64,000 nucleotides of DNA, taken from contig CDROCS010001661.1 of the NCBI GenBank assembly GCA_977020255.1, positions 1 through 64,000 of the forward strand. Direction: 5' to 3'. This document shows, one piece after another, positions 11,051 through 57,137 of the stretch (positions within the stretch are counted from its first letter, which is position 1; each line of letters opens with the position of its first letter). The notes under the pieces are model-generated. The model saw only the letters and a program-made list of their open reading frames with translations, was not told the origin of the DNA and ran no database searches. The stretch comes from Obrimoposthia wandeli (Eukaryota). The position numbers and the translations under genes are program-made.

Positions 11051-11789
11051 AGGAATAATATTTGTGAGAGTCTAGTGCTGTGAAAATAGATGATAGTGTG
11101 CCTCTATGGTATCCCATTAAAGTGTATGTAGAGAAAGAGAAGAGAGCGGAGGAGAAGGAGAAACCTAGAATCGAAGATTTAGATCAAACTGAAGGAGAGG
11201 CAGCAAAAGAGGACAATGTAAATAATTTTTGCATATATATATATATATTTTTAAAAAATAATTAAGTAATTTTTACTAACAAATATTTTAATTAATTCTC
11301 TCTCATTTGATCGGGTAGAATTAAGTCAATTGTAACAGTTATTGTAAATAATGAAACATTTTGAAGATTTACGGTAGCATTAGGCGATAAAGTAAATGAC
11401 GCGATTATAAGCGCTACTAGAATAGGTCAAATTTTAGACAGATTCAGTGATAAGGTAAATTATGATGTTATAAGCACTACTAGAATATGTCACCGGTATA
11501 ATATAGATACTATTTATACAAATCCCGGAATATTTTTAGGAACTAGAGAGACAAGAGTGTCTTTTAGTCATTGCTCTTTGGAAGAAAGGGTGTTAGTAGA
11601 AAAGCTTGCGGAAGCTCGTTTTCCTCATTTTCCCCAATTGACTAATTTAAATAGTACATTTTCTGCAACCAATATTTTAGGGAATAAAGATAAAAAGGTA
11701 AAAGTAAATACCTTCATTAAGCCTAACCTCAAGTCGTGTTTTTTAATATAGAGCAAAAATATCCGTGTGATTGAGTACATGGAGAGGTG

Positions 11790-17335: not shown

Positions 17336-17429
17336 AGTAGGTGGATATGTCCGGTCTAATTCACGCCATCCTCCTACCGCCGGAGGGCTACCACTGTCAT
17401 TTAATACCGTGCATGTGTGTGGAGTGAAA
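17336..17429 (+). repeat. Truncated copy of putative Polinton terminal repeat
   Basis: Begins AGTAGGTGGATATGTCCGGTCTAAT and runs to CCGTGCATGTGTGTGGAGTGAAA; homologous to 25775 and 38078. Confidence 0.7.
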
Positions 17430-19264
17430 AAAATCTATACATGTCAAATGTTATTGATGTTCTTTTGCAGTAACCTGCAACACTCATAGAAGAGAGACCA
17501 AACGCATTAGAAAGTCGAAATTAGATTGTCTGTTGCAATTTGGTTGAGACTTTTTAAAATTTAAACTCAAGCAGTAATCAGCCATCATATTTCAATTCCA
17601 TTGCTCTTTATAGCGTCATTCCATTCCAGTAATATCTCGATGGAAACGTATAAAATGTTCTTCAAAGATGCTCATAATTTTTTTGGATACATTTTAAATT
17701 TATTTGTTTATTAATAAATCCATTGATTACTCTGATTTCATATTTACACTTAAAATTCTTCTACCACATAGAGATTTTAAACAAAAATAGAAATTCGAAA
17801 ATCGATAAATTATCGTCATAAAAATGAAATGTTGCATTTAAATTAGTATGTTCCTTTACATATTATATAATTTATAGTAACTTCATGCATGTATTGCGTA
17901 ATATATGGAAAATAATTTGAAAATAAAAATTTTCCTTTTGACAAAAATCTAAACATGCTGGAATGTTTTGATTAGCATATTTGAAAGTTCTGTACTAGAA
18001 TTTTATTGTAATATTTAATCACCAAAATATGAATTGTGCCGTGTTATTACGTTTATAATATATTTACAAATTAGACAGAAATCTAATATTAAAAATTAGT
18101 TACTTAGCGACATAGGGTAACCAATATTAAGCTACTTCCAAACACATTGCAAACAAAGAGACAAACATGAAGTACAATGCAACTTTAACTTGCTCGTTTA
18201 GATTCAGTGACATGCTGTCTTTGAAATCTTTGTTTGATTGTTATTTATTTTATTCACAATTATCAATACTTACATTATAACTTTATATTCAATAGTAGTT
18301 TTACAAATTAACTCTACAGATCAACACTCAATAATTTATTGAATAACACTTTACTATATTCAAAATGTACTATGTACCACAAACGTCTCATTACGTCTGG
18401 CTATTATAAACATTACAAACCGCACACACGTAAGTGTGTATCCAACAACACAATTTCCAATTACATACCACCGACTCATCTAACCTATTTCTTATTTAGT
18501 ATCTTGGCCAGAAACACAGTTTTACCCAATTTGCGACAGGATCTGTGATTCTATTCACATATCAACTGCAGGTATTAATTTATTAACTTTACTAATTTAA
18601 TTTACTAATCTACAACAGGTGTAGCATAAATACACCATAATAATTTTAAACTCTCACACTCATCGAATATAAAGCACTTATGAATAACTATGGGCCTATC
18701 GCTGGCCCATTCAAATTAATTGTTGATTTAGCAAACTTGCATAGTCAACATTGATGATTTCCCGATTCTTGATGTTATAGCGTGATATTATTTGAATGGT
18801 GGGGAAAATGAACATTACCCACTGAATTGGTTTGTGATCCTAACATTAGAGCTGCTGACGTTGAGCCATAAGAAGATCCCCTGGGCACTATTTAAAGCAC
18901 ATCCGCTTGTGGTAATTCGTACACCAACGAAGGCCGAGTCAGCGGACAATGGAAGCGGAGGCACCATAATTTTCACAGAAATCACGATATAAGAACTAGA
19001 CACAATATTAAATATTAAATATGATAGTTGAAATTGTTATTATTGAAATAATTATTATCAAAACAAGCCAGGGTACTCAGATGTGGGGATTTTTTCATCC
19101 ATAGATGAAAGGGTCTGGCTCAATTATAACTTGACGGTTTGAAGGTATGGTTGGCCAACATACCTAAGGCGTTGTGGTCGTCTATATATGAAGGGGTCGG
19201 GATCAGTTACGACTTGAAGTTATATTTGATGTCATCTCAATTTTTAAAATTTATTTAAATCTGA

Positions 19265-20125
19265 ACTTTAAATTTTACTGGGATATTTTTCTCCAATATA
19301 TATATTATCTGATATATTCTTCAACAGTATCAAATTAACAATATTTCCTACCCTTTTCTTTGATCTATATGCAATGTATATGTAGGAAATTTTATAACAT
19401 CAACATATTTTTCTTCAATGAAGACATCATTGTATAAAAGTACATTAATCCTTATATTCGGATTCTTTGTCTCAAACTTTAATATATTTGAAATCTTCAT
19501 TGGCATATCTGTTTCGTCAAACATCAAATCTTTCAAAACTGGTGAATACTTTCATACAAGAGTTGTATGATTAGTAATCTCACCATGTTTCAAAACAGCC
19601 AGAATTACATAAATAAAACACAGATTGTCATTGTTTTGAAAACTTACAATAGCTTTACTTTTTTATAACGATTTTGGTGTTGGAATGTTTGAATGTCCAG
19701 ATAATGCAGATCTTTCACTATATTTCGTTATGACAAATACATAGTCTAAAACTTTTATTAATTTCCATCCACTTCATTTTCGGAATATTCTTCAACTCTC
19801 TTATCCATAGTTTCTTCGATTTCAGGCATTTTTCATAAATAAATATGACCGCCTTATGAGACCGTTCTCCTTTTTTAATTTCATCCGTATAATGTATTGA
19901 ATTTTTGCATTGCCCATATTATTCATTATTTCTGCTACTTTAAATAGAAGATTATTCGGAATTTTTAAATCAATAAGATCTAGATGAGCAACTTTCATTG
20001 TCGAAGCCGGAACTGCGATTGGAGTCAAATCATAATTTAAAGCTATAGTCGGAATTGAATTTAAAAATCTTTTTTCTACTTATAAATGCTATTAAATAAT
20101 GTTTTTTATAAAATTCTTATAATTA
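19265..20125 (-). pseudogene. Polinton PolB N-terminal fragment, copy 2 (no solo LTR)
   Basis: Near-identical to 13440-14300, with the empty LTR site immediately beyond it. Confidence 0.85.
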
Positions 20126-21238
20126 TCCAGTTCTGTAGTTGAACAATATGGACAAATATAATACATGCCTTAACGATATTTATACCCATAATATTGTTGT
20201 ATTTTATTGTGACCTTTTTCTAAATCCAAATGTTGAAGTTCTTGACAATGAGATATATATTACGCTAATTGCGCTAGATAACAAACTACAAAGAAAGTGT
20301 ATTAGGTTTGAAAACTGTTCAATTATCTAGTAATTAAAACTATAATAAAGAAATACAATAAAGTTTATAAATAGTATTAAACTAAACATTGAAAATATAA
20401 TTGTCGTTTTTATCAATTATTTAATTGTCTTTTATTACAAAGTAGACAATATCTAACAAATTAATTCACGTACTATTTTATATTGACAAAAGAATCATTG
20501 TTGAAAAGGATTAATACACAGATTAACTAGAATATATATGGAGAAAATAGTGTTTTACTGATAATAAGCATTTTAAGCTGACCAAAATATTATTAAAGTT
20601 ATTTATATACTATTTTTTTAAAATATTTATTTAACATTAAGAGTACATGATATAAGGTTTTAATGAAATAAATCAGTGGCTTCAGTTTGGGGAGTATGGC
20701 AATATGATCTGGGAGGTGATCACAAGTTAGTTGGTCGAGTGAAATTTAAGGACATGTTAAACATATTTGTTGTGAGATGCATTAAATTATAAAGATTTTT
20801 TATTATCTCTAGTTGCCTTTCAGACAATGTATACCAATATGATTAGAAGTTTAGAAGATAATGCGGTTCTTGTCAACGGGATACTCGGAATTGTATTAAC
20901 TAATTTTTCCAGAGACTTAAACCAAAAAACTTAAAGAAATAAGTGAAGAAAATTATAAAGCTGAAAATACATTTTTAAGTAAATTATATTGTTATTTACG
21001 AAAACTCACGAAATAATTATTATCAAATGAATGTACATGTATATTTACTAATTGAATTTCTGTCTTTATGGATTTGTTTTATAAAAGGTTTTTGACACTA
21101 CTTTGGACATAGGAAATTATTTAAAATTATTTTTGCTGAGAATGAATTGAATTAAAAATTAGGATAGTTTGTCGATCTAATGGAATTAGAAAAGTTCGAT
21201 TTAAAAGTTTTATATCAGTTTATTTTGATTTTGATTTT

Positions 21239-21261
21239 TATTATTATTTTTTTTATTATTA

Positions 21262-21317
<56 letters not shown>
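21239..21317. repeat. (ATT)n microsatellite
   Basis: Direct run of ttattattatt with short T tracts at the left. Confidence 0.95.
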
Positions 21318-22320
21318 AACAAATATAAACATAAATAAAATAATGCTGTCAATCCCTACAGACAAAATCTTGATTATACTTGTTAAAGTTGCTGATCAAG
21401 GCTATCGTCATTTGGTTGGTATCGAAATTGTAGCACCATCTCACGGGTTCTTCCACTGTTGATTGAAGCAGAACCTTTTCATTTTCGTACTCAATCACCT
21501 CAAAGGTACCGGATTGAGGAGTGAAATAGTCGGGTTCACTGTACAATGCGTACTCTAGATTGTAGAATGGATAAAAGGTGTTAGTCAGAAAATTAATTAT
21601 ATTTTGTTGCTTTGAAGCTATTTCTTAGAGGACCTATATAGCATACCGTAAAAACTAAATTGAAGATTTCTTAAATTGGTAAACCTGCAGAATTGTCTAT
21701 TTATTTACATATTCAGTCTTTAAAATTCATTTTGAATTACGATATTTTAAATAAATACTCTCCCAAAGGATCTTTCTTCAAAACTAATAAGAGATATTGG
21801 AAATGAGAATATTTTTCAATTTGAGAAGTTTGGTGCTTGGTCGTCATTTACATTCAGTCTCATACTCTTTTTCAATTCAGAGCAAAAGTCTGCCAATCTT
21901 CAAAGCTGACGAATAAGAAATATTTTAAAAATACATCAGAAATGTTTAGAAGAAAATATTTTTATTATTGAATGACTAATAGCTGAAAAGTGAAATATGA
22001 CAAAATTGCATTGGAAACATACAAATTTGAACATATACAAAGTCATTGGGAAATTTTGCTACACTACAATTATTCCATTCTGCTTATTCTGGCATTTTAA
22101 AAAAAACATCATATTTTAATCCGATTCCTTATTTGAGAATGGATCCTCTCCTGAGATATGTAGGAAATTTTTATTATCCAGAAAGAATTTCTAAATGAAA
22201 ACTATGTAATATATTAAAGAGGCATCAAATTATACGAGTTATGTATTTTGTAAAAATATCAAAAGTGGAGAATAAAAAAAAAATCTTATCGAAATTTTAA
22301 CAACATTTGAGATTGATCAA

Positions 22321-22551
22321 TTGAAAATTATTTTGGGATTTTACATTCCTGATTATGTATATGAAGGAAATTCTTTCCAGCTTGAAACGGATCCCAGTCT
22401 GGCTTTTAGAGATGATCTAGAATATTTGAGTGCTCCAATTTTAGATGAAGGACTATGGAATATTTCAATACGTCTCGGATATTTTGTTGATGAAGGAAAT
22501 ATGCATCCTCTTTGGACTTTGAGTGAAGCCAATATGGTGTTTTATGTTTGA
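22321..22551 (+). other. Unassigned ORF fragment (IILGFYIPDYVYEGNSF...)
   Basis: Protein-like 76-aa open frame with no family recognised. Confidence 0.25.
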
Positions 22552-22885
22552 TTTATTCAATGTTTTGAAAATAATTTTGACTCGTATTTTGTTTTTCTCC
22601 CTAAATTATATAAATCCTACCTATTTTTTTCTCCTATAAATCATAAAACTGACCTAGACATTTAACAAACATGTATTAATTTATTAATTTAAAATTTCTA
22701 TTAAAATAGTAGTAATATATTCACATACACATATTTTTGAAATCTCGTCTGCGATAAGCCGCCGGGGTCAACATGGATTTCCATGGTCTTCTCTAATCAC
22801 CTTTGAGATTATCGGTAAAATTCAAAGTAAAATTTTAAAAAAAGTGGGGGGAGACCCCCACCCTCTCCCCACTTCTGGTGGGATA

Positions 22886-22996
22886 GACACACATGCACGA
22901 AATTTCACTCCACACACATGCACGGTTTTAAAGGACAGTGGTAGCCCTCCAGAGGAGGGCAGGGGGTGGATTAGACCGGACATATCCACTTACTCT
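22886..22996 (-). repeat. Variant copy of putative Polinton terminal repeat (no fold-back)
   Basis: Reverse complement reads AGAGTAAGTGGATATGTCCGGTCTAATCC...GTCCTTTAAAACCGTGCATGTGTGTGGAGTGAAATTT-CGTGCATGTGTGT. Confidence 0.7.
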
Positions 22997-23804
22997 CATG
23001 CTAGATCACAAGACTACAGAAGAGCAAATTTTAAGTTTACCTGCTGTCTAAATTTCAATTTAAATATGAGATTTGATAAAATATATATGTTATTAAATTA
23101 TACTTACTTTCAAAGTTGTCACTGAAAACTTGTGGAAAAGGTTTTGATTTCCTTTGCTTATAGAAGCCTTTATGACCGGTGGAAATTGTCGATAGTGTAG
23201 TCAACATATTGGTGCGCATAAATATTTGCATTTTTCCACTTTTGTCTACCTATAAAATTGAATGATCAATATGATATAGTTAAGTTTATTTACTTTTTCA
23301 AGAGTATATCATAAGTAATGTACCTAGTAAAAAATATGTTTATTATTTTAAAAACAAAACATCGATAACTAGAAATGTTATGAAACAATAAAGAAACAAA
23401 AAAATAATAACTTAATACAAAACTTCAGGAGGCTAATTAAATCACATTTATTGAACATGCACTTCCGGCGACTGGAGAAAGAAGAGTCAGAAGATAAATA
23501 ATTATGATATACAGATGCTGTGTTCATTTGTGTGTATCTGTTACATTTGTAAACTTTAAATACCTGTTTATCTATAGATATAAATAAAAATCTATAAATA
23601 ATGGAAAATCATTGCTACTGCAATCACTTTAGCTAATTAGAATTATCTGCTTATCTATACAAGTATCAGTACATCCAGTGAATTGAAGAAGCACTTCCCA
23701 ACTAATACCTATTGTCGATATTCTAAATGATATTTTTTACAATTATATATAAACAATTATAAAAAATTGTACAATTATGATCTGTAATTATTTCAGTATT
23801 TTTG

Positions 23805-24115
23805 TGGTTATCAAAATGTTCATCATTATTTCAATGTTCTGATATTATATTTCTCTGGGCACAACACCGTAGCAGACCTTTTTAATATAATTCAGCATTG
23901 TTGGTTGTGAAGATTTCTTAGATTGGATGTCGCAATCTCTAGGTCGAGTGTGGCTTATCTTTATATACAACATCCCTCAACATACACCATAGAAAGAAGT
24001 CTGGTTGTGTTAGCTCTGGGGACCGTGCTGGTCATTCAGTTGACTCAAGTCGCACAATCCGGCGATTTTTAAAAATTGCATTTAACCTTCGTCGAGTATA
24101 ATGGGAGTCGAAATT
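23805..24115 (-). mobile_element. Tc1/mariner-family transposase C-terminal remnant
   Basis: E*PARSPELTQPDFFLWCMLRDVVYKDKP...EHF matches WPPRSPDLTPLDFFLWG.LK..VY...P...HFE, with in-frame stops. Confidence 0.8.
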
Positions 24116-25337
24116 TATTATGACTTCAAGAGACTGTATAATGATATTTACTGAGGTATACTAAACAACAAAATTGATCTATTCTTTACTCGCAGAAGTT
24201 ATCTAACAATGATTTACCTACAAGATGTGGCAGCGAACAGAGTCTTCTACAGTGACCTACTAGGTCACAAAATCTTATTATATGTGACCTTTTTTAAAAG
24301 AATACTTCAGGAGGAAAATTCCTAGAATTGCACTCAGAAAAAGTAAAAATAATTCGTGAACAGGAAAAATCATTCTCAGTAAATAATTTCAGAAAAGAGT
24401 TTATCTATGTGGTGAAATGGCTTTCACATTATTTCATTTTAACGTTAAGTTATGTAATCAGATGCCGGAAATATCCTACCGAGGATAAATATCCTGTATA
24501 CATGAATAAATCTTGTGTTTGTAGAATCTGACTATTGAATTAGGTATTCGGTGTAAAATATAACTCGTTATTTAAACATTCTTGTGTACATTTTAATTAT
24601 GTTTAGTATTGTACAGTTTTATGTACTTCTTATACTATAGGACGTTTTTACCCAAAAGTGTAATTTTGATGAGCCGTACATTTTTCAATTGGAAATAATT
24701 TATGTTTTAAAATGATGTTTTGTTCATTTATGTGCGACTTTTAGATGTCTAGAAATTCTTCTTTCAAGTTTAATTAATTAACGTTTTAATTAACAAAAAT
24801 CACATTTTTGTGGAACTTTTTTAATATGAAAATTTAAAAACTTTCGAGCATACATGAAGTAAATCAATATTTCATTAATCATTTATGAATAGTTCAGTTT
24901 TAGAGCTAAGGTCTTTCTTTAAAAGGTTATTCGTAAAAAGGTGAATTTTACATAAAATTAATTAATATTTTAAAACTATTTTTCTTTATTGTGGGTAACA
25001 TTTTAATTACATATCATTTTAATAAGTATTTTAGTATAAACTTTATGCATAACTTAGGCAATTGTTATTTATTTGCTTTATATTTTTTAAGGATAGTTAT
25101 TTAATTATTTGTTATTTTAATGTTCTTTTAAATTTAACTCTAACATATACTTTGAGTAATCAATAATTAATCAATGTAGTGAACTTACCTCTCCGAGATT
25201 TGAGCACTATATGGGCGATCATTGAGATTTTCAGTTCTAAACGGTCTTAAATAGGATTAATAAGTATCTTGTGGTGATGGGAGGGGAGTTAAAAACACTT
25301 ATGCATTACTTTATATAATTCATAAAGTAAAAAATCA

Positions 25338-25733
25338 TCAAAAAAATCGTAATAAAATAAAACTTGATGAAGGCAATCCAACTGTATCTGATTGGAAGTC
25401 TTCTTAATTGACAGAATTCATCCAGATGTCGTCTGTTAATTCAACGAAATCAGATCCCTAGATGTCCCCCAACCAGCTGTTGTTGCTCCATTGAGGCTGC
25501 TCCCTCTCGAAATCTGACTGAGTGATATTTTCCATCCAGTCAATGTTCAAGTCCTCAAAATCTTCTTGGGAGAGGACGTTCATCCACTCATTGTTAGTTA
25601 TTTGTGTGGATGAGGCAGCAGCGGATTCGGGAGAATGGAGGGAAGGACCAATATCAGGACCGTAAACAGGTTGAAAAGCTGCAACTGGAACAGGAGCTGG
25701 AGCTTGAATAATCAGCGAATCGCACGATGGCCC
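25338..25733 (-). pseudogene. Acidic repeat ORF remnant (inverted copy of 38120-38515)
   Basis: Same Pro/Ala-rich then W-x-x-x-I-x-Q-x-D-F repeat frame as at 38.1k. Confidence 0.45.
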
Positions 25734-25774
25734 TCAAATTTTAGACAGATTCAGTGATAAGATAAATTATGATG

Positions 25775-25995
25775 AGTAGGTGTATGTGTCCGGTCTAATC
25801 CACACCCCCTCCCCCCTTGTCCTTTAAAACCGTGCATGTGTGTGGAGTGAAATTTCGTGTAGGTGTGTGGAGTGAAATTTCACTCCACACACATGCACGG
25901 TTTTAAAGGACAAGGGGGGTACTTCCCCCCCTAAAAAACATTTTCGAGCGTGTCGGCGCGAAGGACTCGGGACTGACATTGGTCACAGACTAGCC
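25775..25995 (+). repeat. Putative Polinton terminal repeat with perfect hairpin
   Basis: Starts AGTAGG. The 45-bp arms at 25811-25855 and 25875-25919 are exact reverse complements around a 19-nt loop. It ends in a partial 46-bp repeat unit. Confidence 0.8.
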
Positions 25996-26779
25996 CTACA
26001 ATGTACGGATAATTAGAGAGATTACTTTGATCAATTAGTCAATTTACGATCAAGAGTATATTATTAATCTGCATCTTTAACTAGGAATTTTATTAAATTT
26101 CAAAATGATTCATTAAATCAAAAATGTTCTCTACTTTCTTTTGCAAAAGTTTTTATTTGTAAAAGAATCTGTAAAAGTTTTGTAACTAAAAAATGATTAG
26201 TTTCAAAGAATATTGTTTGAAGATTAGCTTATTTAAGGAAATTAAAGTATATAATAAATAATTAATTTAATTATCACTAGTAAACATCGGATATCAATAC
26301 TATATTGGAACATTTTGTTTAGAAATTATTACATCAGGACTAGAAATGGATTAAATTATATTCTCTCTTTCGATTCATGTAAACCTAAAATTATTTTCAA
26401 GTATCATTTATTGATATAATTTATTAAATAATGTTTAGAGTATGTATTTATCTCAGTCATAATTTATTCATATTACTTGAGTCTATTGATAACTATATTC
26501 TAAAAAAATAATTTTTCATTGATCGATATATCAAACAAGAAAATTCTTGCAAAACTCTACAAGCTTATTGATGTTATCAATATTATGGAAACTTATTTTC
26601 AAACCTCAACAACCAGTCGATTTATTACTTCAAATAAATCGGTCTAGTAAAGTCATTATACATAAAAGGTTCTATAAGAGAAATAAAGAAGATGCATGAG
26701 ATTTGTTACATTTAGATGAGATATGACATGGGTGTTTATAAGGTTTAAGAATAGAAAATAATGGATAGAGTTTTAGAAG

Positions 26780-27800
26780 AGAAACTCACGATTTGTTCAA
26801 AAGGTTCTCTTGAAGAGTAATTAATACATAGAAAGATAAGTAGCGGTTCAGAGGAGACATTAACGATACTTTTAGGAGGTATCAAAAATATAGCCTAGAT
26901 TGGATTATGAAGTGAAATTGATGTGATTTATTTAAGAGATTTAGGAATAGAATTTAGGAAGTTTATTACATAGAAGAGGAAATTTACGAGGTATTTAGAA
27001 GGTTATAGAAGAAGTATTAATGCATAGAATGGTTAGAAAAGACAAATTGAAAAAGTGTTCAAGAGGTTTCAGAAGATATATTATAGATTTGAAGGGTTTA
27101 GAAAAGATTTAGCAGGAATGTTTAGGAGGTATCAGAAAATATAGCCGTAAAAGGTCTTTAGAGAAGTATTTAAAAGGAGTATTTAGGAAGTTTCAGAAAA
27201 AAGAAATTAAAATTGGTTCATAGGGTTTAAAGGAGGATTTCAAGAGGAAATTAGACGAATTTAGAGGGAGATTTAAAGGGATATTTAGATGGTTCAGAAA
27301 AGAAATTAAAGCCTAAAGGGTTCAAAGGAGAATTTAACCGAGGAGTTCAGAAGAGAAAATATAACCTTAAAGAAGATAAAAGGAGGATTTAACGGATATT
27401 TTAAGAGGTTTCAGAAGAGGAAATATAACTTAAATTGGTTCAGAGGAGAATTCATATGGGGAGGTTTCAAAAGAAATTAAAGGAATTTAGAGGGAGATTT
27501 AACAGGGAGTTCAAGAGGTTTCAGAAGAAGAAATTAGATGAATTTAGAGGGAAATTTAACGGTGAGTTCAGGAGGTTTCAGAAGAAATTAGATGAATTTA
27601 GAGGGAAATTTAACGATGATGTTTAGATGGTTCAGATTAATGCTTTGAAGGGTTTAAAAGAGATGTTTTGATAAATATAGCCTAGATAGCTAGATTGAAT
27701 GAAAATAAAAGCGATGTATATAAGGTTAGTAGGATTCAGAAGAAAAAATATAGGATATATTCGACTTTGAAAGGAAATTAAATGTGAGTTAGAAGATATT
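26780..27800 (+). repeat. Degenerate 54-60-bp purine-rich minisatellite with coding periodicity
   Basis: The unit gaatttagagggaaatttaacggtgagttcaggaggtttcagaagaaattagat translates to EFRGKFNGEFRRFQKKLD. Confidence 0.85.
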
Positions 27801-29414
27801 TAGGTGGTTTAGAAGGGAAATAAGACTTCTGTTCTAAAACTGTAGTGAAATCGTATTTTATCAAATTTCCGGTCATTTAAGATTATGATATAAGCGATCA
27901 TATTGAATTTCAGCTTTATACTGCTTCAAAGTGAGTTATACCAAAAATTAATCATAAGTATTTTACTCATATTTCGGTCATAACGAAGACAATTTTTACA
28001 AAAGCAGAGATATTATTCAAACTTTTACCATCTTCTTATAAATTTTTCGCATATATTTTGGAAATAGATGTTAGTGTTAGAGTATTAGAATATTAGAACT
28101 AGAGTATTAGAAGTTAGAGGTTTAGGTTAGATATTGAGTAATAACGATTAGTGGACATATTCCCAATTATTGATTTTAAAGTTGAAAATAATCAATGATG
28201 TTGTAAATAGCTGCTTATAAGCCAATAGGTATTAAGGAAAACTTAAAGAAACAACTTCTGAGTATTGATAAAGTCATCATATTTTTATAAAAAATCAGGT
28301 AAAATATTTATGATTACTATTAATAGTTTTGGTTCATATAAATGGATTCTATCTTCATTAGACATTAAAAATACTTTTAATCAATTAAATTAAGATATTG
28401 AAAGAAAATTAACGATGTCATTAATACATAGTAAATAAGTGATATTCAAAAAGAGTTTTATCGAAGTCATCAATATTATCGTTCCAAAGCCAATATTTAA
28501 GCATTTCATCTATTCCTTCTACATTCCTTCAATTAAAATCAAAGCTAGGTATGATATTTTTTAAAGATAATGTTTGAAGTATTTTATTGAAATTTAGATG
28601 CAATAATGAAGAATAGTGTTAAAGAATTGACATTAGGATGAATTAGAGGTTATATCTGAAAGGGATAATCAACTTCTTGTTTGATATATGTGAGGAATTT
28701 TATGAATTATACCTTGTTTGTTTGACATATATAATCAACATCTTGTTAGATATTTTTAAAAATTAGGGTTGATAATAGAGGTTTATGGGAAGGAAAGTTA
28801 TTGAGAATTATAGGAAAATTTATAATTATGTTTTAAAAGTTGGACTTGTGATTTATGAGGAAATTATACCCGGATTGTTATATATGAGAAGAGATAGTAA
28901 TTAAAACGTATGCAATATTCAAGAATATAAATGATTAATTACTATTTATATATGTTTCAAAAGGAAAAATATTGAAAATTTCTAAGAGTATTAGTGAGAA
29001 TGAATCAAATAGTTACAGAGACATATCTATCCATTACTTTTCAATCCATATCAATTTCATCCATCGTTTCAAATTCATGGATCATCTGATTCAATCAATA
29101 ACTTCAAACATAACAGAGAAATCTCTAGAAGATGCTTCGTGATCATAAATAGTCTTAACCCAAGATCTCAAAGAAAGTTATACCGAAATTATATAGATTT
29201 AACTAATATCCAAAGACTACTTCCAAAGTCAATATTCAAGCATCTTATCTACATTCAATTTATATATGTTAATGATTAAAAATACGTATTTGATTAAACA
29301 AAGTTGTATTAAGCGCTGCAATACTGCGTTTAGCTTTAACAAGATTCCATGCAAAATTATTCTTTAAATCTATATTAAAAATATTAGTATTAAGATAGTG
29401 TTTATAAGACAAAG

Positions 29415-29708
29415 TTACTTAAAATATTTAATTTCAATATATCCACCAACAAACAATAAAAAACTCTTCTCCCAGAAAAAGCTCCTCTTCTTTTCTTTCA
29501 TCTCTTCTTTCATCTCTTCTTTCTTCTTATTATAGCCCAGAATGAGAAGATTGACTGCCTTATTGTGAATTATTCTTCGTACATGCTCCTCCAGAGGTAG
29601 ATCCGTTGCTTCGATGAGTCTCAGAACATTTTCTTCTATAAGATTTTTCGAGATGAAACTCTTCACTGCCCGATCAACATCATGCTTGAAATAATTGCGA
29701 GTAGGCAT
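29415..29708 (-). CDS. Hypothetical 97-aa protein
   Basis: Intact ATG-to-TAA ORF, visibly GC-richer than its flanks, lying between two 79-bp direct repeats. Confidence 0.5.
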   Translation of the reverse strand: MPTRNYFKHDVDRAVKSFISKNLIEENVLRLIEATDLPLEEHVRRIIHNKAVNLLILGYNKKKEEMKEEMKEKKRSFFWEKSFLLFVGGYIEIKYFK

Positions 29709-30050
29709 GATAATGAAGTAGGAGTGAAAAGTAAACTGTTTATATACTATACAACTAAAATCTGATTAGATGATAGGAGAATCATAAGAAATACAATTTG
29801 TATGATAATGATTAAAATTACGTATTTGATTAAGCAAAGTTGCCTTAGGTGTAGCAATACTATGTTTAGCTTTAACAAGATTCCAGTCAGTTTTAACACT
29901 CATTGAAAGAGATAAAAATGCAATAACAATACAAACAGCATGTAAACCTCCATAATGACCACATACTAGAACTTTCCCACCATTTTGGTGGTTTCTTAAA
30001 TTATATTATTAGTCTGTTTCTCCTAATTTCATATTTACATAAATTGATTT

Positions 30051-30419
30051 TTACTTTAATTCCTTATAAGATATCTTATCTGCTGGAGATGTATTGATTA
30101 CATGTGTGAATTTCGATTTTAGAAGCTCAGTTTCATCAAACCCGTCATGATAATTTTCAATATTTAATGGATTTACTAAAATCTCGCTCATTGGGGTTTT
30201 GTTTAATTTTTCCACACTAAGTTGGTTAAATCTAGCTCTAAACAAACTATCAAAAAAGGTGGGACATATATGACATTTCCATACTGGGAGCATTAGCTAT
30301 TACGGGTTCTATAAAAGTTAGAGCATTTAAGAAATCCAATCGCTTATTTTCTTCTTTATCGGTTTCTTCAATAATTTCTTCATTTTTCTCTGCTGATGAT
30401 GGTTCACCGAGTTTCTCCA
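30051..30419 (-). pseudogene. Hypothetical protein with one frameshift (MEKLGEPSS...)
   Basis: ATG frame MEKLGEPSSAEKNEEIIEE...MSYMSHLF joins FDSLFRARFNQLSVEKL... across a T6 homopolymer. Confidence 0.4.
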
Positions 30420-30534
30420 TTTTATTGACAAATTTAAAGCTATAAGAGTATAGTTTATAATTCAGAAAACAAGGGAAAATATATTTTTAGTAACATTACA
30501 ACTTTTTGCATCTTTTTGCAAGTAATGTCTTTGT

Positions 30535-31026
30535 TTAGGAAAGAATACAAGTTTGAAGATGTTTATTAAATAAAATACATTCAACATGATATTCATATTC
30601 TAGGGTCTTAACCCCAAGTATCATCACCTTCCCGCTCGCAAAAATGTTCACGCATAGAGGATTGTATTTGATATAACGTAGCCCTGGAAAAATTATGGTT
30701 CGTAAACTGCTTCCATTCTCATACTCTTGCTCATCTTACTCAGGTTTATTGGTTTTTCTAAGTACTGACACTGATTGAATTCTCTCGATTTTGATATTGA
30801 ACGGAAGAGTGCTTTCATCTAGCACAGCTTTACACCCCATGATTCGACATGTTCCAAAATTATATTAAAACTTAAATGTAAAATATATTACCAGATTTGT
30901 ACCAGATAGTATAACTATCACACTTGTGTCGGTACTGATGTGGCTTCGAAATGGTAAGTGTTGAATATTGCTTACAACCATTCCCTTGTAATTAATATTC
31001 ACAAATTTGATATTATGAAGTAACAT
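30535..31026 (-). pseudogene. Divergent second TBP-like gene with a 37-nt intron
   Basis: MLLHNIKFVNINYKG...WYKSG|TCRIMGCK...IQSVSV..LEKPINL..YEP*.FPGLRYIKYNPLCVNIFASGKVMILGVK. The intron is 30855-30891 (GT...TG); frameshifts are present. Confidence 0.85.
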
Positions 31027-31141
31027 TTCTGGTTATTATAAACTGATTATTATAAACTAATTCTTATATATTATTTGAAAATCTATTTTTAGATTACAAA
31101 TTATCTCTATAAACAATATTCCGATATTGATTTTTATTGAA

Positions 31142-31330
31142 ATGGATAATCAAGATAGAGCAAGCACATATATTGGTTCTGGTAGTAATTTATATGCTAA
31201 TATGGATTATAATAGAAATAATCATAGAGAAAATATTTATCCAGTAACTGAAACAATAACAAGACCCACGCGCGTAACCGAAGAACGTGAGCCCTTCAAG
31301 GATATGACTAATACGAAGCGATTTACATAA
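31142..31330 (+). CDS. Small hypothetical ORF divergent from the TBP-like gene
   Basis: ATG-initiated 62-aa frame MDNQDRASTYIGSGSNLY..., head-to-head with the TBP-like start at 31026. Confidence 0.3.
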   Translation: MDNQDRASTYIGSGSNLYANMDYNRNNHRENIYPVTETITRPTRVTEEREPFKDMTNTKRFT

Positions 31331-34266
31331 ACAACATTATCAATCAATTGGAATCGGACTTCAAAGGATAAACAATTGAATAAGATCACTAAATAACTTT
31401 TCTCGAAGAATTCTCCTCTGTAAACACCTTGTTAAATTCCATCTCTGAACATGTATAAATCAGTACATAATATATATTTCTCTACATATTTTAAAATGTA
31501 TATTTAAAAATGTATTGATTATTTTAATTAATTGTGATAATGAAGATGAATGAATAGAGATTGTGATAATGAAGGTTGAAGATGAGTGATTGCTTTGATG
31601 AGATGAAGATGGATCGAAGTAATGAAGATGGATCGAAGTAATGAAGATTATGATATTGTGAAGAGATGATGATGTAACAATGAATGTATCTTTAATAAAA
31701 ATTATTCTTTGCTATCTCTATTTACTATTTTAACTCATAGGTTTAAAAATGTGTAATAAATACCTTAAGATTACAAAAAAACGTTTTTTACTCACAAATA
31801 AAAGTAGAATCAATTATACAAAATAAGTCATCACTTCTCACTACTTCTACAAGTTGTTCTTTATTTTTAGCTTGTTGAACATTTTTTACTTCTAGTAGTA
31901 CTGGGTGATTTTTGATTTTATCGTTTAGTCCATATAGAAACTGATGTAGTAGTAAGCATTCTCTTAAAGATTATATAAAATCATAATTGATTATCTGATC
32001 ATGATATTGCCGTAGTATAAGTTTCTTTTGAAAATAACCAATATGGTTCACTTTATTTTCTTAAAGCTCTTAAATATACCGTAATTCTTCTACTTATTAT
32101 TACTTAACCTCAATGGTGATTTAATTGAAGTATCTAATGACTGTGTACAACTTGATGAGTAGAAGAAAAAATAAGAAAAACTTGAATATGACTTACTATA
32201 TCGAAATAATAGTAAAATATTGATAATTTAAATACAACTTTCAATAATCACCATATGTCTTTCAAGGTTTTATATAGAACTTTAAAGCTTACGATAACTG
32301 TTATAATATTGATGAATTATATGCAATATTATTACTTTGGTATCAGTTTCTTAAGAAAATTATCAATTACATGTGATATAAAATCATCTTTTAATATACC
32401 TGTTTTGATTGTAAATTTGATATAAGATTCTTTGACATGAGGTATTTTCATCAGGTTTGTGCATAATATTGATACAATACATACATTATTGATCATTTCG
32501 GTATAACTATCTTTGAAAATAATTAATAATATATGAGGTTATGTAAAGATTTCGTCATGCAATACATGTTATTATCGTGATGATTTGTATGCAGTCCTTT
32601 TAGAGTTGCTTGAGGAGAAAATAACCCATCTCGCTTCTAAAACTTTCTTAATATTCCGTCATACATCACAATATCTGATTAATTCCTCAACTTTTTTGGG
32701 GTATATTTTCTCTTCTGAAATCTCCTAAATACTTCGTAATATCTTCTTCTACTTTGCATTGCTTCATGAAATGCTACATTATAAATATCAATGATGATTC
32801 AAGGCTGGCTGATGAAATGAATGTAGATAAGATGATTGAATATTGACTTTGGAAGTAGTCTTTGGATATTAGTTAAATCTATATAATTTCGGTATAACTT
32901 TCTTTGAGATCTTGGGTTAAGACTATTTATGATCACGAAGCATCTTCTAGAGATTTCTCTGTTATGTTTGAAGTTATTGATTGAATCAGATGATCCATGA
33001 ATTTGAAACGATGGATGAAATTGATATGGATTGAAAAGTAATGGATAGATATGTCTCTGTAACTATTTGATTCATTCTCACTAATACTCTTAGAAATTTT
33101 CAATATTTTTCCTTTTGAAACATATATAAATAGTAATTAATCATTTATATTCTTGAATATTGCATACGTTTTAATTACTATCTCTTCTCATATATAACAA
33201 TCCGGGTATAATTTCCTCATAAATCACAAGTCCAACTTTTAAAACATAATTATAAATTTTCCTATAATTCTCAATAACTTTCCTTCCCATAAACCTCTAT
33301 TATCAACCCTAATTTTTTTAAATATCAAACAACATGTTGATTATATATGTCAAACAAACCAGGTATAATTCATAAATTTCCTCACATATATCAAACAAGA
33401 TGTTGATTATCCCTTTCAGATATAACCTCTAATTCATCCTAATGTCAATTCTTTAACACTATTCTTCATTATTGCATCTAAATTTCAATAAAATACTTCA
33501 AACATTATCTTTAAAAAATATCATACCTAGCTTTGATTTTAATTGAAGGAATGTAGAAGGAATAGATGAAATGCTTAAATATTGGCTTTGGAACGATAAA
33601 ATTGATGACTTCGATAAAGCTCTTTTTGAAAATCACTTATTTACTATGTATTAATGAAATCGTTAATTTTCTTTCAATGTCTTAATATTAATTGATTAAA
33701 AGTATTTTTAATGTCTAATGAAGATAGAATCCATTTATATGAACCAAAACTATTAATAGTAATCATAAAGATTTTACCTGATTTTTTATAAAAATATGAT
33801 GACTTTATCAATACTCAGAAGTTGTTTCTTTAAGTTTTCCTTAATACCTATTGACTTATAAGCAGCTATTTACAACATCATTGATTATTTTCAACTTTAA
33901 AATCAATAATTGGGAATATGTCCACTAATCGTTATTACTCAATATCTAACCTAAACCTCTAACTTCTAATACTCTAGTTCTAATATTCTAATACTCTAAC
34001 ACTAACATCTATTACCAAAATATATGCGAAAAATTTATAAGAAGATGGTAAAAGTTTGAATAATATCTCTGCTTTTGTAAAAATTGTCTTCGTTATGACC
34101 GAAATATGAGTAAAATACTTATGATTAATTTTTGGTATAACTCACTTTGAAGCAGTATAAAGCTGAAATTCAATATGATCGCTTATATCATAATCTTAAA
34201 TGACCGGAAATTTGATAAAATACGATTTCACTACAGTTTTAGAACAGTAGTCTTATTTCCCTTCTA

Positions 34267-35300
34267 AACCACCTAAATATCTTCTAAATCACATTAAATT
34301 TCCTTTCAAAGTTGAATATATCCTATATTTTTTCTTCTGAATCTTATATACATCGCTTTTATTTTCATTCAATCTAGCTATCTAGGCTATATTTATCAAA
34401 ACATCTCTTTTAACCCCTTCAAAGCTTTGATCTGAACCATCTAAACATCATCGTTAAATTTTCCTCTAAATTCATCTAATTTCTTCTGAAACCTCCTGAA
34501 CTCACCGTTAAATTTCCCTCTAAATTCATCTAATTTCTTCTTCTGAAACCTCTTGAACTCCCTGTTAAATCTCCCTCTAAATTCCTTTAATTTCTTTTGA
34601 AACCTCCCCATATAAATTCTCCTCTGAACCAATTTAAGTTATATTTCCTCTTCTGAAACCTCTTAAAATATCCGTTAAATCCTCCTTTAATCTTCTTTAA
34701 GGTTATATTTTCTCTTCTGAACTCCTCGGTTAAATTCTCCTTTGAACCCTTTAGGCTTTAATTTCTTTTCTGAACCATCTAAATATCCCTTTAAATCTCC
34801 CTCTAAATCCGTCTAATTTCCTCTTGAAATCCTCCTTTAAACCCTTTAATTTCCCCTATGAACCAATTTTAATTTATTTTTTCTGAAACTTCTTAAATAC
34901 TCCTTTTAAATACTTCTCTAAAGACCTTTTACGGCTATATTTTCTGATACCTCCTAAACATTCCTGCTAAATCTTTTCTAAACCCTTCAAATCTATAATA
35001 TATCTTCTGAAACCTCTTGAACACTTTTTCAATTTGTCTTTTCTAACCATTCTATGCATTAATATTTCTTCTATAACCTTCTAAATACCTCGTAAATTTC
35101 CTCTTCTATGTAATAAACTTCCTAAATTCTATTCCTAAATCTCTTAAATAAATCACATCAATTTCACTTCATAATCCAATCTAGGCTATATTTTTGATAC
35201 CTCCTAAAAGTATCGTTAATGTCTCCTCTGAACCGCTACTTATCTTTCTATGTATTAATTACTCTTCTAGAGAACCTTTTGAACAAATCGTGAGTTTCTC
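34267..35300 (-). repeat. Inverted copy of the FRRFQK minisatellite
   Basis: ORF 34441-34632 is nearly identical to 27435-27626. Confidence 0.85.
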
Positions 35301-36149
35301 TTCTAAAACTATATCCATTATTTTCTATTCTTAAACCTTATAAACACCCATGTCATATCTCATCTAAATGTAACAAATCTCATGCATCTTCTTTATTTCT
35401 CTTATAGAACCTTTTATGTATAATGTCTTTACTAGACCGATTTATTTGAAGTAATAAATCGACTGGTTGTTGAGGTTTGAAAATAAGTTTCCATAATATT
35501 GATAACATCAATAAGCTTGTAGAGTTTTGCAAGAATTTTCTTGTTTGATATATCGATCAATGAAAAATTATTTTTTTAGAATATAGTTATCAATAGACTC
35601 AAGTAATATGAATAAATTATGACTGAGATAAATACATACTCTAAACATTATTGAATAAATTATATCAATAAATGATACTTGAAAATAATTTTAAGTTTAA
35701 ATGAATCGAAAGAGAGAATATAATTTAATCCATTTCTAGTCCTGATGTAATAATTTCTAAACAAAATGTTCCAATATAGTATTGATATCCGATGTTTACT
35801 AGTGATAATTAAATTAATTATTTATTACATAGATTAATTTCCTTAAATAAGCTAATCTTCAAACAATATTCTTTGAAACTAATCATTTTTTAGTTACAAA
35901 ACTTTTACAGATTATTTTACAAATAATAACTTTTGCAAAAGAAAGTAGAGAACATTTTTGATTTAATGAATCATTTTGAAATTTAATAAAATTCTTAGTT
36001 AAAGATGCAGATTAATAATATACTCTTGATCGTAAATTGACTAATTGATCAAAGTAATCTCTCTAATTATCCGTATAATTGTCCGTAATAAACTCTCACT
36101 TATTGATCATTATATACTCTCTTCAAATTATATCTTTATTACACGGAGG

Positions 36150-37063
36150 AATCCTTTAAATATGTTGAAGAGAAATCCAATTAGTGCATCTACCATATAA
36201 GAAACCATGTAAACTTTATTGACGCGTTGGCACATAAGAATCGTCAGGAAATACAACTTATTTATTCTGAAAGTAATTTTCTCCTTAAACTAAAATCAAA
36301 GAAAATTATAGAAATATGGCTAAATTCATTGAAAAATGATCAATTATTTGCATTATAATTTGCATTATTCTAAAAATCCTTGGTAAATTTATCTTCTAAT
36401 CTATAAATTGAGTGAAAATCGATCTTTCTAATTCGAAATTTACATTATTCAGAAAAATTATACAGTAAATTCATTTGTCAAATAAAATCCTTATAAATGA
36501 TCTAAGATTCAACTTTGCATCTTAATTTACATGATTCTGAAATATACACGATAAAATGCATTCTAAAATCGAACTTTTTATATCCAAATTACAATTTTGT
36601 TCTAAAGTGTCATAATGTAGACGTGCAAGCTACACTGTTGTCTGCAATGATTTTAGATGGATTATTAGACACATTAAAATTTTCTATAAACCATCCTTTA
36701 GCCAATACTGCGATATGCAAGTTTAAGGATGAGAGTAAGCAATGTAGATATAAGCAATGGGTATTTTTACGCTCCAAATCATATAGCTTAGAAACTATAG
36801 ACGGAAAGTCCCATATGAGAGCAATGGGAATTAGCCTTAAGCAGACTGTGCTACGCCATGCGAATTATTTAGCTGCATATGAGAGTGGGGTTAGTGAACG
36901 AGTGCGACAACAACGCATTAGTTCAATTAATAACCAGCTCTATACCGTAAATATGAGTAAGATCGCATTGAGTAGCAATGACGAGGAGAGAAAATGGGTA
37001 GAGAAAAACCGGTCAGTTGTCTATGGACATCATAGATATATAGATTATTTTTCACTTGAATAA
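36150..37063 (+). pseudogene. Polinton protein-primed DNA polymerase B, C-terminal fragment
   Basis: DSEIYTIK (degenerate DTDS.IY), HPL...KFKDE, FLRSKSYS, RAMGIS (KAKGV), KIALSSNDEER (KVALSP.DDKR) and YGHHR, in the order found in Polinton PolB. Confidence 0.88.
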
Positions 37064-37572
37064 TTGTTTTTGTATGTTTGAATTTGTATGTCACAAATTT
37101 ATTGTACCTAATTTTCTCTTTGGTTTAATAAATATTGGTCTTTTTCTAAGTTTAAAATTTTAAAGTATAAAAGTTCTATGTAAAATTATTTTTTTAAACT
37201 ATAAAAATTGTTGTAAAAAATTATGTTGGAAATTTTATTTTTAAACTATAAAAATTGTGTAAACAATTTTATTTAATTTTTAAATTTTTTTGTTTAAAAG
37301 CCATTTTTTTTGGTTAAAAACCATGTTGAAAATTTTTAATGTTGCGCAAAAAAATTGCATCTTATTCAAATAATTTTTGTAATGTTTGTTCGTGCCTAAA
37401 GATCAAGAATGAAGCCCGCCCTGAAGGTTCGGGTGGTGTATGTTAGGGTCTTGGGTATGACACGGGTCGTTTACATGTTGTGAGAGGTAAAGTGATACTG
37501 AAGCGCATGTTTTTGTAGTTATTTTCGCGAGAATGGAGCACGCCCTGAAGGGGCGGGCGGTGGGTGGATGTT

Positions 37573-37784
37573 NNNNNNNNNNNNNNNNNNNNNNNNNNNN
37601 NNNNNNNNNNNNNNNNNNNNNNNNNNNNNNNNNNNNNNNNNNNNNNNNNNNNNNNNNNNNNNNNNNNNNNNNNNNNNNNNNNNNNNNNNNNNNNNNNNNN
37701 NNNNNNNNNNNNNNNNNNNNNNNNNNNNNNNNNNNNNNNNNNNNNNNNNNNNNNNNNNNNNNNNNNNNNNNNNNNNNNNNNNNN
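37573..37784. other. Assembly gap (N run)
   Basis: 212 Ns. Confidence 1.
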
Positions 37785-37922
37785 GTACATCGCAGGGCTA
37801 GTCTGTGACCTATATGAGAGCGAGATATCCGTACATCGCAGGGCTAGTCTGTGACCTATATGAGAGCAAGATATCCGTACATCGCAGGGCTAGTCTGTGA
37901 CCTATATGAGAGCGAGATATCC
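37785..37922. repeat. 46-bp tandem repeat, three copies, abutting the gap
   Basis: gtacatcgcagggctagtctgtgacctatatgagagcgagatatcc x3, with one substitution in unit 2 and no spacers. Confidence 0.95.
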
Positions 37923-37933
37923 GAGGAGTTTCC

Positions 37934-38078
37934 CCCCCCTTGTCTTTTAAAACCGTGCATGTGTGTGGAGTGAAATTTCATTCCACACACCTACACAAAA
38001 TTTCACTCCACACACATGCACGGTTTTAAAGGACAAGGGGGGAGGGGGTGTGGATTAGACCGGACACATACACCTACT
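37934..38078 (-). repeat. Putative Polinton right terminus with hairpin
   Basis: Arms 37934-37978 and 37998-38042 (one mismatch). It ends ...CACCTACT at 38078 and lies downstream of the PolB 3' end. Confidence 0.8.
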
Positions 38079-38119
38079 CATCATAATTTACCTTATCACT
38101 GAATCTGTCTAAAATTTGA

Positions 38120-38515
38120 GGGCTATCGTGCGATTCGCTGATTATTCAAGCTCCAGCTCCTGTTCCAGTTGCAGCCTTTCAACCTGTTTACGGTCCTGAT
38201 ATTGGTCCTTCTCTCCACTCTCCCGAATCCGCTGCTGCCTCATCCACACAAATAACTAACAATGAGTGGATGAACTTCCTCTCCCAAGAAGATTTTGAGG
38301 ACTTGAACATTGACTGGATGGAAAATATCACCCAGTCAGATTTCGAGAGGGAGCAGCCTCAATGGAGCAACAACAGCTGGTTGGGGGACATCTAGGGATC
38401 TGATTTCGTTGAATTAACAGACGACATCTGGATGAATTCTGTCAATTAAGAAGACTTCCAATCAGATACAGTTGGATTGCCTTCATCAAGTTTTATTTTA
38501 TTACGATTTTTTTGA
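38120..38515 (+). pseudogene. Acidic repeat ORF remnant
   Basis: IIQAPAPVPVAAFQPVYGP...EWMNFLSQEDFE-DWMENITQSDFE-SWLGDI*GSDFV-IWMNSVN*EDFQ. Confidence 0.45.
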
Positions 38516-39896
38516 TGATTTTTTACTTTATGAATTATATAAAGTAATGCATAAGTGTTTTTAACTCCCCTCTCATCACCACAAGATACTTAATAATCAT
38601 ATTTAAGACCGTTTAGAACTGAAAATCTCAATGATCGCCCATATAGTGCTCAAATCTCGGAGAGGTAAGTTCACTACATTGATTAATTATTGATTATTCA
38701 AAGTATATGTTAGAGTTAAATTTAAAAGAACATTAAAATAACAAATATTTAAATAACTATCCTTAAAAAATATAAAGCAAATAAATAACAATTGCCTAAG
38801 TTATGCATAAAGTTTATACTAAAATACTTATTAAAATGATATGTAATTAAAATGTTACCCACAATAAAGAAAAATAGTTTTAAAATATTAATTAATTTTA
38901 TGTAAAATTCACCTTTTTACGAATAACCTTTTAAAGAAAGACCTTAGCTCTAAAACTGAACTATTCATAAATGATTAATGAAATATTGATTTACTTCATG
39001 TATGCTCGAAAGTTTTTAAATTTTCATATTAAAAAAGTTCCACAAAAATGTGATTTTTGTTAATTAAAACGTTAATTAATTAAAGTTGAAAGAAGAATTT
39101 CTAGACATCTAAAAGTCGCACATAAATGAACAACTCATCATTTTAAAACATAAATTATTTCCAATTGAAAAATATACGGCTCATCAAAATTACACTTTTG
39201 GGTAAAAACGTCCTATAGTATAAGAAGTACATAAAACTGTACAATACTAACAGGCATACACACTTACTAACGGGTTACCCGATGGAACCTAAGTGGACAA
39301 ATTATCTAGATGACCAAACCTTATTTAGATTAAACTAATCCGAATCAAATTCCCCAACAGAAAGACCCAAGCACTACACAGGAACTAAAAAGAAATTAAA
39401 TTGGTTTTTGGAAATTAAATTCAATAATTTTACTGGACATCCTCCTACGAAGAATACTACAGATAATTATTTTTATTTTTGTGTTATGTTCATGTATTCA
39501 TGTGTTAAAATATTGACATTTTAATTTATGTAACTCTCAGAATATTTAGCCCCCTGGTCATTTTTATTTGTATGTATTAAAATTAAATTACAATTTTTGT
39601 ATTTAATAGAGCCCAACATATACTAGAGATATACTATGAAATTAATTGATAATAAAATATTTCATTTTATAGAATATAATTAGATTAAAAATATTGGGTA
39701 TGCTTCTTTGTACTTTCTTCATTTAAAAAAAGTGCGTCTTTATATTCAGAGCCATTTAAGTTTACTTTTACTTCGAACTACAGACTTGATTAATTTATTC
39801 ACTTTTTATCTTACTGATTCTTTTTCTTGATCTCTTAGGCTTTACTTTTTCTTTGCATTTACGTTTTACTATCAACTTCTTAAAATGCAATGCAAA

Positions 39897-41184: not shown

Positions 41185-42054
41185 ATGGATTCATGTATCA
41201 TTTGTACTGGAGAGCTAGAGGATGGTGAAGTTTGTGTGACTGAGTGCAGACACTATTTCCACACCGAGTGTCTCAAGGTATGGATGCTAGTCAACTGTAG
41301 CTGTCCATTTGAACGAAATGAATTGCAGTACATCTTCATTTGTCAAAATGGCACTGAGAGCCGAGTTAGTGTGGCCACACTTCTGCGGAAAGAATGGGAA
41401 GGATTGTGCAGAGAGATTGTGGAGGATAGTAAAGCGAAGTGTTCGGTCTTGTATGAGGTGCTGACGACCCAGATGGTGCTGACCCATGAATTTCTAGAAT
41501 TAGCTGCACAACAACGGGATCACGGACCGACACTGGAAAAGTGGTTCCATTGTCTTTCGTATTTATGCAACACTATGCAAAGCTTCGAGGATGAGTTCAC
41601 AGAAAACTTCATCAAGGTCCTGGAAACAGAACAGAATTCAGAAGGCTCTGACAGTCTGGAGTCGTCTTTGAATTGCATGAAAGATGTGCAAGAACAGCTG
41701 TTATCTCTTGTACACATCTGCAGCGTGTTAGGGGCCATAGGTGGCGATTTGGACCGGGTCCGATCTTTGTGTCAAGATTTAGAACTACTGGTCGACATCA
41801 CACGGGAAGGTGTAGTCGATCTCAAGATCTACTTCCTCACGACGAAGCTGCCAACTCAGCTGAGAGGTAACATGAAAATAGTGCTTTTTGGAAGAGCTTC
41901 AATGCAGCATTGTGCCATGTGCCGAGAAGAAATCGTTGATGTTGAGCGACTCCACGAGAGCCCCAAGACCTTAGGTATTTGTGGCCACAGGATCTGTCAC
42001 AACTGCACCCTAGAATTACACGAGTTGGACATATTTTGTCCACATGAAAATTGA
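41185..42054 (+). CDS. Twin-RING protein (N-terminal RING-H2-like, C-terminal RING-HC-like), putative E3 ubiquitin ligase, intact copy 3
   Basis: 289-aa intronless ORF: C-x2-C...C-x-H-x2-H-x2-C...CPFE and C-x2-C...CGHRICHNC...CPHE, joined by a predicted helical linker. E3 activity is inferred from RING family knowledge. Confidence 0.9.
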   Translation: MDSCIICTGELEDGEVCVTECRHYFHTECLKVWMLVNCSCPFERNELQYIFICQNGTESRVSVATLLRKEWEGLCREIVEDSKAKCSVLYEVLTTQMVLTHEFLELAAQQRDHGPTLEKWFHCLSYLCNTMQSFEDEFTENFIKVLETEQNSEGSDSLESSLNCMKDVQEQLLSLVHICSVLGAIGGDLDRVRSLCQDLELLVDITREGVVDLKIYFLTTKLPTQLRGNMKIVLFGRASMQHCAMCREEIVDVERLHESPKTLGICGHRICHNCTLELHELDIFCPHEN

Positions 42055-57120: not shown

Positions 57121-57137
57121 GTCTAGATGTAAAGAAG

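Follow-up and report, generated by a model that had tools for sequence, protein, structure and literature searches.

The 64-kb stretch of DNA analyzed here (the window) has a GC content of ∼30% and is built largely of duplications of 79 to 99% identity; it holds fragmentary genes of a Polinton-type element. Fragments of a protein-primed family B polymerase (pPolB) at 13.5 to 13.9k, 19.4 to 19.8k, 36.6 to 37.1k, 49.0 to 49.3k, and 62.6 to 63.0k match full-length homologues; when four of these homologues were scanned, one matched DNA_pol_B_2 and three matched only an Endonuclease_7 insert. A packaging ATPase of the A32 type (57385 to 57765) has best relatives that are up to 75% identical, most of them annotated as PF04665 (Pox_A32). 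TBP-like, ATPase, rve integrase, and pPolB genes stand side by side in a metagenomic relative (L013). When the integrase and the remaining long frames from 12 related loci (71 in all) were run against the window by tblastn, none matched, and no integrase was detected among the fragmentary copies there. We found no Rep/HUH family member and no telomere resolvase among the 38 frames, chosen from 108, that were scanned in Pfam, in a region whose genes are degraded.

Several other frames accompany these genes. TBP-like fragments adjoin the packaging ATPase (30538 to 30864 and 56721 to 57275, with copies near 5229 to 5453 and at 40.6 to 40.9k), and L013 has an intact TBP-family frame (L013:2160-2618; Pfam E value, 2.7e−17) beside its ATPase and integrase. 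An intact-looking frame of 289 amino acids (41185 to 42054 and 55573 to 56442), with an N-terminal RING finger and a second, C-terminal Cys/His cluster, recurs several times next to these TBP-like and ATPase pieces. In a related Polinton locus (L003:1530-2729), a TRAF-like gene encodes RING, zinc finger, and MATH domains. The spacer of an inverted duplication contains a weak dual-specificity phosphatase match (29769 to 30005; Pfam E value of 0.004, below the cutoff), and the window also holds fragments of LTR retrotransposons. Taken together, this content suggests that the host may be an animal.

Termini of the Polinton-type elements

Maverick ends are defined by AG-type end motifs and 6-bp duplications, and their end repeats have been linked to protein-primed initiation (PMC8097293, PMC4196379). 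We aligned contigs from four public sequencing runs of one sample (X1 to X4), which may themselves be the source of the assembly, to positions 22700 to 26150 of the window. Unrelated flanks join at exactly 25775 in 78 contigs of X1 and 159 of X3, with a consensus agreement of ∼0.4, and at 22994, where X3 has 165 loose ends; the motifs AGTAGG and AGTAAG, respectively, start at these two positions. Loose ends and alignment together place the tip motif AGTAGG at 25775 and 17336 and AGTAAG at 22994. The features at and near the element ends are as follows.

25775..25810, + strand: true terminus of the element, comprising the tip (5′-AGTAGG) and the outer spacer of its Polinton-type terminal repeat; marked by loose ends and by the start of homology with other copies
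17336..22994, no strand assigned: sister element with both tips, a perfect 6-bp target duplication (CTCATG), and an N-terminal pPolB fragment inside
36593..37063, + strand: C-terminal fragment of pPolB, ∼1 kb inside the tip at 38078

The terminal motif occurs five times in the window (17336, 22994, 25775, 38078, and 52704), but the five copies amount to three independent ends, with 17336/52704 and 25775/38078 as duplicate pairs. The inverted terminal repeats of the sister element (17336 to 17429 versus 22903 to 22994) are 88% identical over 94 columns. In the 25775/38078 pair the flanks are inverted and one end is duplicated; the partner end lies outside the window. Two larger candidates were rejected: 24603 to 39250 as a single element with long terminal repeats, as neither AG tips nor a target duplication occurs at its limits, and 25775 to 38078 as a single insertion, as its flanks are inverted copies without a direct duplication.

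The hairpin that drew attention to this locus begins 36 bp inside the tip at 25775. The ends that bear it are Polinton/Maverick-type ends, and the hairpin itself is not terminal, because unrelated flanks join at the tip, outside the stem. The family of terminal repeats is shown to be very large by the summed depth of its conserved core, which is not equal to copy number but is >10^4 times that of the single-copy stretch 23025 to 24477 (∼12 in X1 and ∼120 in X3). Within the 64-kb window the hairpin is confined to the duplicated 25775/38078 end, that is, to one of three independent ends, a restriction that the preliminary description had named as counting against its own reading.

Searches beyond the window returned relatives of the genes rather than of the ends. 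The ATPase alignment yielded 45 metagenome loci and 5 genome loci; neither it nor the pPolB homologue found relatives in viral contigs, and a protein atlas search gave no usable match. Exact-motif scans for the core or the tip returned no loci in viral contigs and none in metagenome contigs. We checked 34 of the 50 ATPase loci (L001 to L029 and L046 to L050; 149,506 bases), leaving out the 16 weakest, and found no terminal motif and no perfect hairpin of ≥16 bp; because element ends are apparently absent from these loci, the absence of the hairpin there says little.

The surroundings of the tip at 25775 show further junctions. Position 24448 is a second high-copy element end starting with AG, at which 92 loose ends in X1 and 118 in X3 carry unrelated flanks; the end that bears the hairpin either lies within this second element or adjoins it. 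The 41 bp just outside the tip (25734 to 25774) are a piece of a frame that is uninterrupted at 11427 to 11467 and 46794 to 46834; since this match stops exactly at the tip, those copies look like an empty target site.

Geometry of the hairpin and its two copies

The hairpin and its immediate surroundings can be divided as follows.

25811..25856, + strand: left arm, consisting of the conserved family core and the first 25-bp unit and ending in GAAATTTC (25849 to 25856)
25856..25881, + strand: second 25-bp unit, which makes the 17-nt loop and holds the second GAAATTTC (25874 to 25881), the putative switch point
25874..25919, − strand: right arm, an inverted core with 8 nt of shared palindrome and 38 nt that would have been templated
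25920..26011, + strand: inner side of the stem, with a G/C spacer, a low-copy linker, and one truncated 46-bp module

The two arms (25811 to 25856 and 25874 to 25919) are 46 nt each, 100% complementary, and separated by 17 nt; the hairpin described earlier is thus real, although its arms are 1 nt longer and its loop 2 nt shorter than the 45-bp arms and 19-nt loop first given. Folded as DNA, 25811 to 25919 reaches about −59 kcal/mol (z = −17), which none of 200 shuffled sequences equaled, and beyond 46 bp there is no further mirror symmetry. When the whole window was scanned for perfect arms (≥14 nt, with loops of ≤100 nt), nothing was recovered except the hairpin, the 30-bp palindrome inside it, and the 38.0k copy.

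As reported before, a 25-bp unit stands in tandem within the hairpin (25831 to 25855 and 25856 to 25880, 92% alike). The junction of two such units spells the self-complementary 8-mer GAAATTTC, present at 25849 to 25856 and 25874 to 25881, 25 nt apart; the turn had been placed at AAATTT, which is indeed part of a self-complementary word, but the whole word is this 8-mer. The second of two alternative folds that had been proposed exists on paper, but at −17.7 versus −58.1 kcal/mol and with a pair probability of ∼2e−8 it is thermodynamically negligible. We rejected it on this gap of 40 kcal/mol, which leaves effectively one fold for the 25.8k stem-loop. At neither end does the sister element have a hairpin: its left tip copy is truncated within the unit, inside GAAATTTC near 17429, and its right end holds 1.5 units. 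The latter is the 22.9k variant, which was correctly described as lacking a fold-back (its fold is not significant, with z = −2.0 and 5 of 200 shuffles equally good) but which was credited with the full tandem pair.

The second hairpin, at 37934 to 38042, lies in an inverted duplication.

37934..38078, − strand: second copy of tip and hairpin, the same locus in the inverted duplication, with a different inner spacer
24603..25774, + strand: shared flank, an inverted match to 38079 to 39250 (98.6%) with the same junction
37785..37923, + strand: 46-bp tandem module in ≥3 copies, running into a gap of 212 N (37573 to 37784)

This second copy had been called the same hairpin; it is indeed present but not identical, as tip and hairpin differ at 3 of 145 positions, compared to 16 of 1,172 in the shared flank. 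The shared 1,172-bp flank and the identical junction show that both hairpins derive from one insertion site and one event. All three substitutions break pairing in the 38.0k copy (one in the innermost stem pair, one in the stem, and one in the 30-bp palindrome), and none is compensated. The stem shows no sign of maintenance, and the 38.0k copy is decaying, in a small sample (3 substitutions in 145 bp) in which pairing indicates which copy has changed. The loop has the same orientation in both copies, which are not independent.

Immediately after the stem, at a G run, the two copies diverge, so at least one more event is needed to account for them. The linker directly behind the 25.8k stem (25937 to 25940) has a depth near that of single-copy sequence (10.4 in X1, 454 in X3, and 0 in X2 and X4).

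Origin of the hairpin

We think it probable that the hairpin is a passive product of a template-switch rearrangement within a terminal repeat belonging to a Polinton/Maverick-type family of very high copy number. Inverted repeats like this one are known to be produced by short template switches (PMC5453318), and a single switch suffices here: positions 25775 to 25881 followed by the reverse complement of 25811 to 25848 reproduce the window exactly, the inserted tract being the exact reverse complement of the nearby core at 38 of 38 nt. The presumed unswitched state is represented in the family, in that 29 contigs of X2 and 30 of X4 go on after 25881 with another unit in the tandem direction, as the 22.9k copy also does. 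Among the contig joints listed, three have the core repeated directly with G/C-rich spacers, and one has the core joined to the inner module without a hairpin (X1, 33.6; X3, 641). A template-switch product was one of two origins put forward in the preliminary description, and it is well supported by this exact one-switch reconstruction, by the tandem-continuing contigs, and by the uncompensated decay of the second copy. We infer the switch itself, its template, and the absence of a function.

In the mechanism that we propose, the tandem 25-bp unit would supply the self-complementary 8-mer GAAATTTC at each unit junction. During DNA synthesis a nascent 3′ end at the second 8-mer (25881) would anneal to a complementary 8-mer, and the conserved core would then be copied backwards, giving two head-to-head cores. 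The template could have been the element's own nascent strand, folded back over the 17-nt loop, with 38 nt copied before an exit at the G run; alternatively, it could have been the core of the partner or another terminal repeat, as in the proposed paired-ends intermediate of Polintons, for which a racket-like single-stranded form has been suggested (PMC4196379). Along its full 46 nt, the right arm pairs with the variant present in the left arm itself, consistent with a fold-back on the nascent strand. It is also identical to the core at 22899 to 22937 (39 of 39 nt), and the 10 nt that follow it match a family spacer read backwards (joint 25929→22885; X3 depth, 453), which fits a switch to the partner or another terminal repeat without return; this continuation slightly favors the latter template over the element's own strand. 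Later the hairpin locus was duplicated in inverted orientation, a further switch probably taking place at the base of the stem, and it is now decaying.

There is a small chance that the head-to-head core, although produced by this switch on one or a few occasions, has since become heritable, either in a subfamily of ends or in short palindromic nonautonomous elements spread by an autonomous Polinton; in the mini-element form, two terminal repeats would be fused at the 8-mer, with the far tip hidden in the gap at 37573 to 37784. Such inheritance would account for three of the contig joints listed (25916→25969, 25919→25966, and 25919→25967), in which an inverted core precedes the module with different linkers, and for the backwards spacer after the arm at 25929→22885. 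These three joints, however, are low in depth (229, 294, and 453 in X3) and have a shorter side of only 22 to 24 letters, and they would arise just as well from a variant of the repeat in forward orientation whose module lies outside the core. The gap is immediately preceded by 30 bp that are similar to the outer spacer of a right-hand end (22 of 28; shuffling p = 0.002, 1 of 30 comparisons), so the gap may contain an element end and the 38.0k unit may be a fused mini-element with a hidden far tip; yet the sequence ahead of the gap shows no matching target duplication, depth in the linker behind the hairpin is close to single-copy level, and the 38.0k stem is decaying. We see a somewhat slimmer chance for the fuller version, in which a subfamily with cores fused at GAAATTTC, or palindromic mini-elements of less than 1 kb, would use the stem as a self-priming or strand-transfer site on a displaced single strand: this would provide a hairpin route beside protein priming and give rise to local rearrangements at the stem base.

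Two further observations concern the sequence next to the gap. Positions 37406 to 37572 contain two copies of a GC-rich motif, the second of which is the one that resembles the outer spacer. A likeness of the 46-bp module to the outer spacer was dropped, as it did not reach p < 0.1.

That the hairpin is an artifact of library or assembly, either a fold-back chimera or a misjoin of two collapsed copies of the abundant core at the palindromic word, seems very improbable to us. The core is abundant enough for such an error (its summed depth is given above), the right arm is identical to another copy over 39 of 39 nt, and the gap lies 150 bp from the second copy. None of the contig joints listed spans the loop, but because contigs break at long inverted repeats, this is evidence neither way. 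A chimera would not produce a hairpin that is present twice with three independent transition-type differences, one of them in the stem, and the linker directly behind the stem is covered in both X1 and X3.

The other origin put forward earlier was a functional hairpin acting as replication origin or resolution site; a hairpin of this kind, known from rolling-hairpin and hairpin-telomere replicons, would amount to a second, nonprotein priming route. The stem is very stable, one tip copy breaks off inside the same word near 17429, and a priming role has been proposed for the terminal palindromes of Halocafeteria virophages and polinton-like viruses (bioRxiv 10.64898/2026.07.28.741278). We nevertheless find this reading scarcely credible, given that the stem is internal to an AG-type tip, the sister element has its 6-bp duplication, the symmetry stops at 46 bp rather than extending into a replicon on both sides, a single duplicated locus is involved, its two copies share one loop orientation and differ in ways that break pairing without compensation, the second fold is negligible, the 38 scanned frames include no Rep/HUH family, and the present family carries pPolB, whereas the Halocafeteria palindromes, as described there, abut the target duplication and belong mostly to non-pPolB elements.

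Comparison with known systems and neighboring duplications

With its 5′-AG-type tip, 6-bp target duplication, paired terminal repeats, and nearby pPolB and A32-type ATPase genes, the family resembles Polintons/Mavericks (PMC8097293, PMC4196379, PMC6431247). Its tip (AGTAGG/AGTAAG) is a variant of (AGT)2 and thus departs from the (AGT)2 or (AG)3 motifs given for vertebrate Polintons in the main text of PMC8097293, where the word "hairpin" does not occur. Unlike Polintons, one end here has a head-to-head duplicated subterminal core, and compared to complete Polintons, the copies in the window are fragmented and the integrase was not detected there. We found no report of such an internal fold-back in an animal Polinton end in a limited literature search that covered few subscription journals.

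The proposed switch is similar to the Ripley-type template switch of the four-point model (PMC5453318), in which a preexisting short inverted repeat and an exact reverse-complement copy nearby yield a perfect stem-loop. It differs in its exit, which does not appear to lead cleanly back to the original strand; what follows may derive from another terminal repeat, and this would bring the event closer to a microhomology-mediated fusion. Among integrating double-stranded DNA virus-like elements, the endogenous virophages and polinton-like viruses of Halocafeteria seosinensis also have a long palindrome in the terminal repeat (bioRxiv 10.64898/2026.07.28.741278); those palindromes, however, adjoin the target duplication, are shared by every complete element of a given subtype, and accompany mostly non-pPolB genes, whereas the hairpin studied here lies 36 bp inside the tip, at one of three independent ends, in a pPolB family.

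The structure is real and striking, and its cause is probably ordinary. It illustrates clearly how a long perfect hairpin can form inside a transposon end from tandem units whose junction is palindromic, and it warns that stems near Polinton ends need not be replication signals. Should fused cores be present at many independent young insertions, they would bear on the proposed replication of Polintons via a paired-end single-stranded intermediate and on the origin of nonautonomous palindromic derivatives.

Stable DNA stem-loops with a central palindrome are also known from the rolling-hairpin ends of parvoviruses and from the hairpin telomeres of poxviruses, phage N15, and Borrelia. Unlike these, the present stem-loop is not at a molecule's end and lacks the extended mirror symmetry of a replicated junction; in addition, there are no loop isomers in its two nonindependent copies and no Rep or resolvase among the 38 frames.

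The hairpin had also been suggested to seed the many inverted duplications of the region. It may account for one such event at most: inverted alignments of ≥500 bp have 19 ends, of which 3 fall no more than 100 bp from a hairpin (0.18 expected), but the other 16 are >1.2 kb away, and at none of the 19 is the hairpin the fold-back center of an inversion. The three near ends (25919, 37934, and 26004) are a single internal discontinuity of one duplication (24603 to 29263 versus 39250 to 32812), whose copies part at the base of the stem and come together again through 8 bp of microhomology (26004 to 26011). This microhomology joins the truncated module to inverted sequence from 36075, and loose ends at 26004 carry the 36075-side sequence. 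The stem base may have attracted one further switch, although the G/C spacers vary across the family anyway. At the outer breakpoint of the same inverted duplication (39250 to 39269), we noted a 19-nt remnant, perhaps due to chance, that resembles the tip in 16 of 20 columns (p = 0.02, uncorrected, 1 of 30 comparisons).
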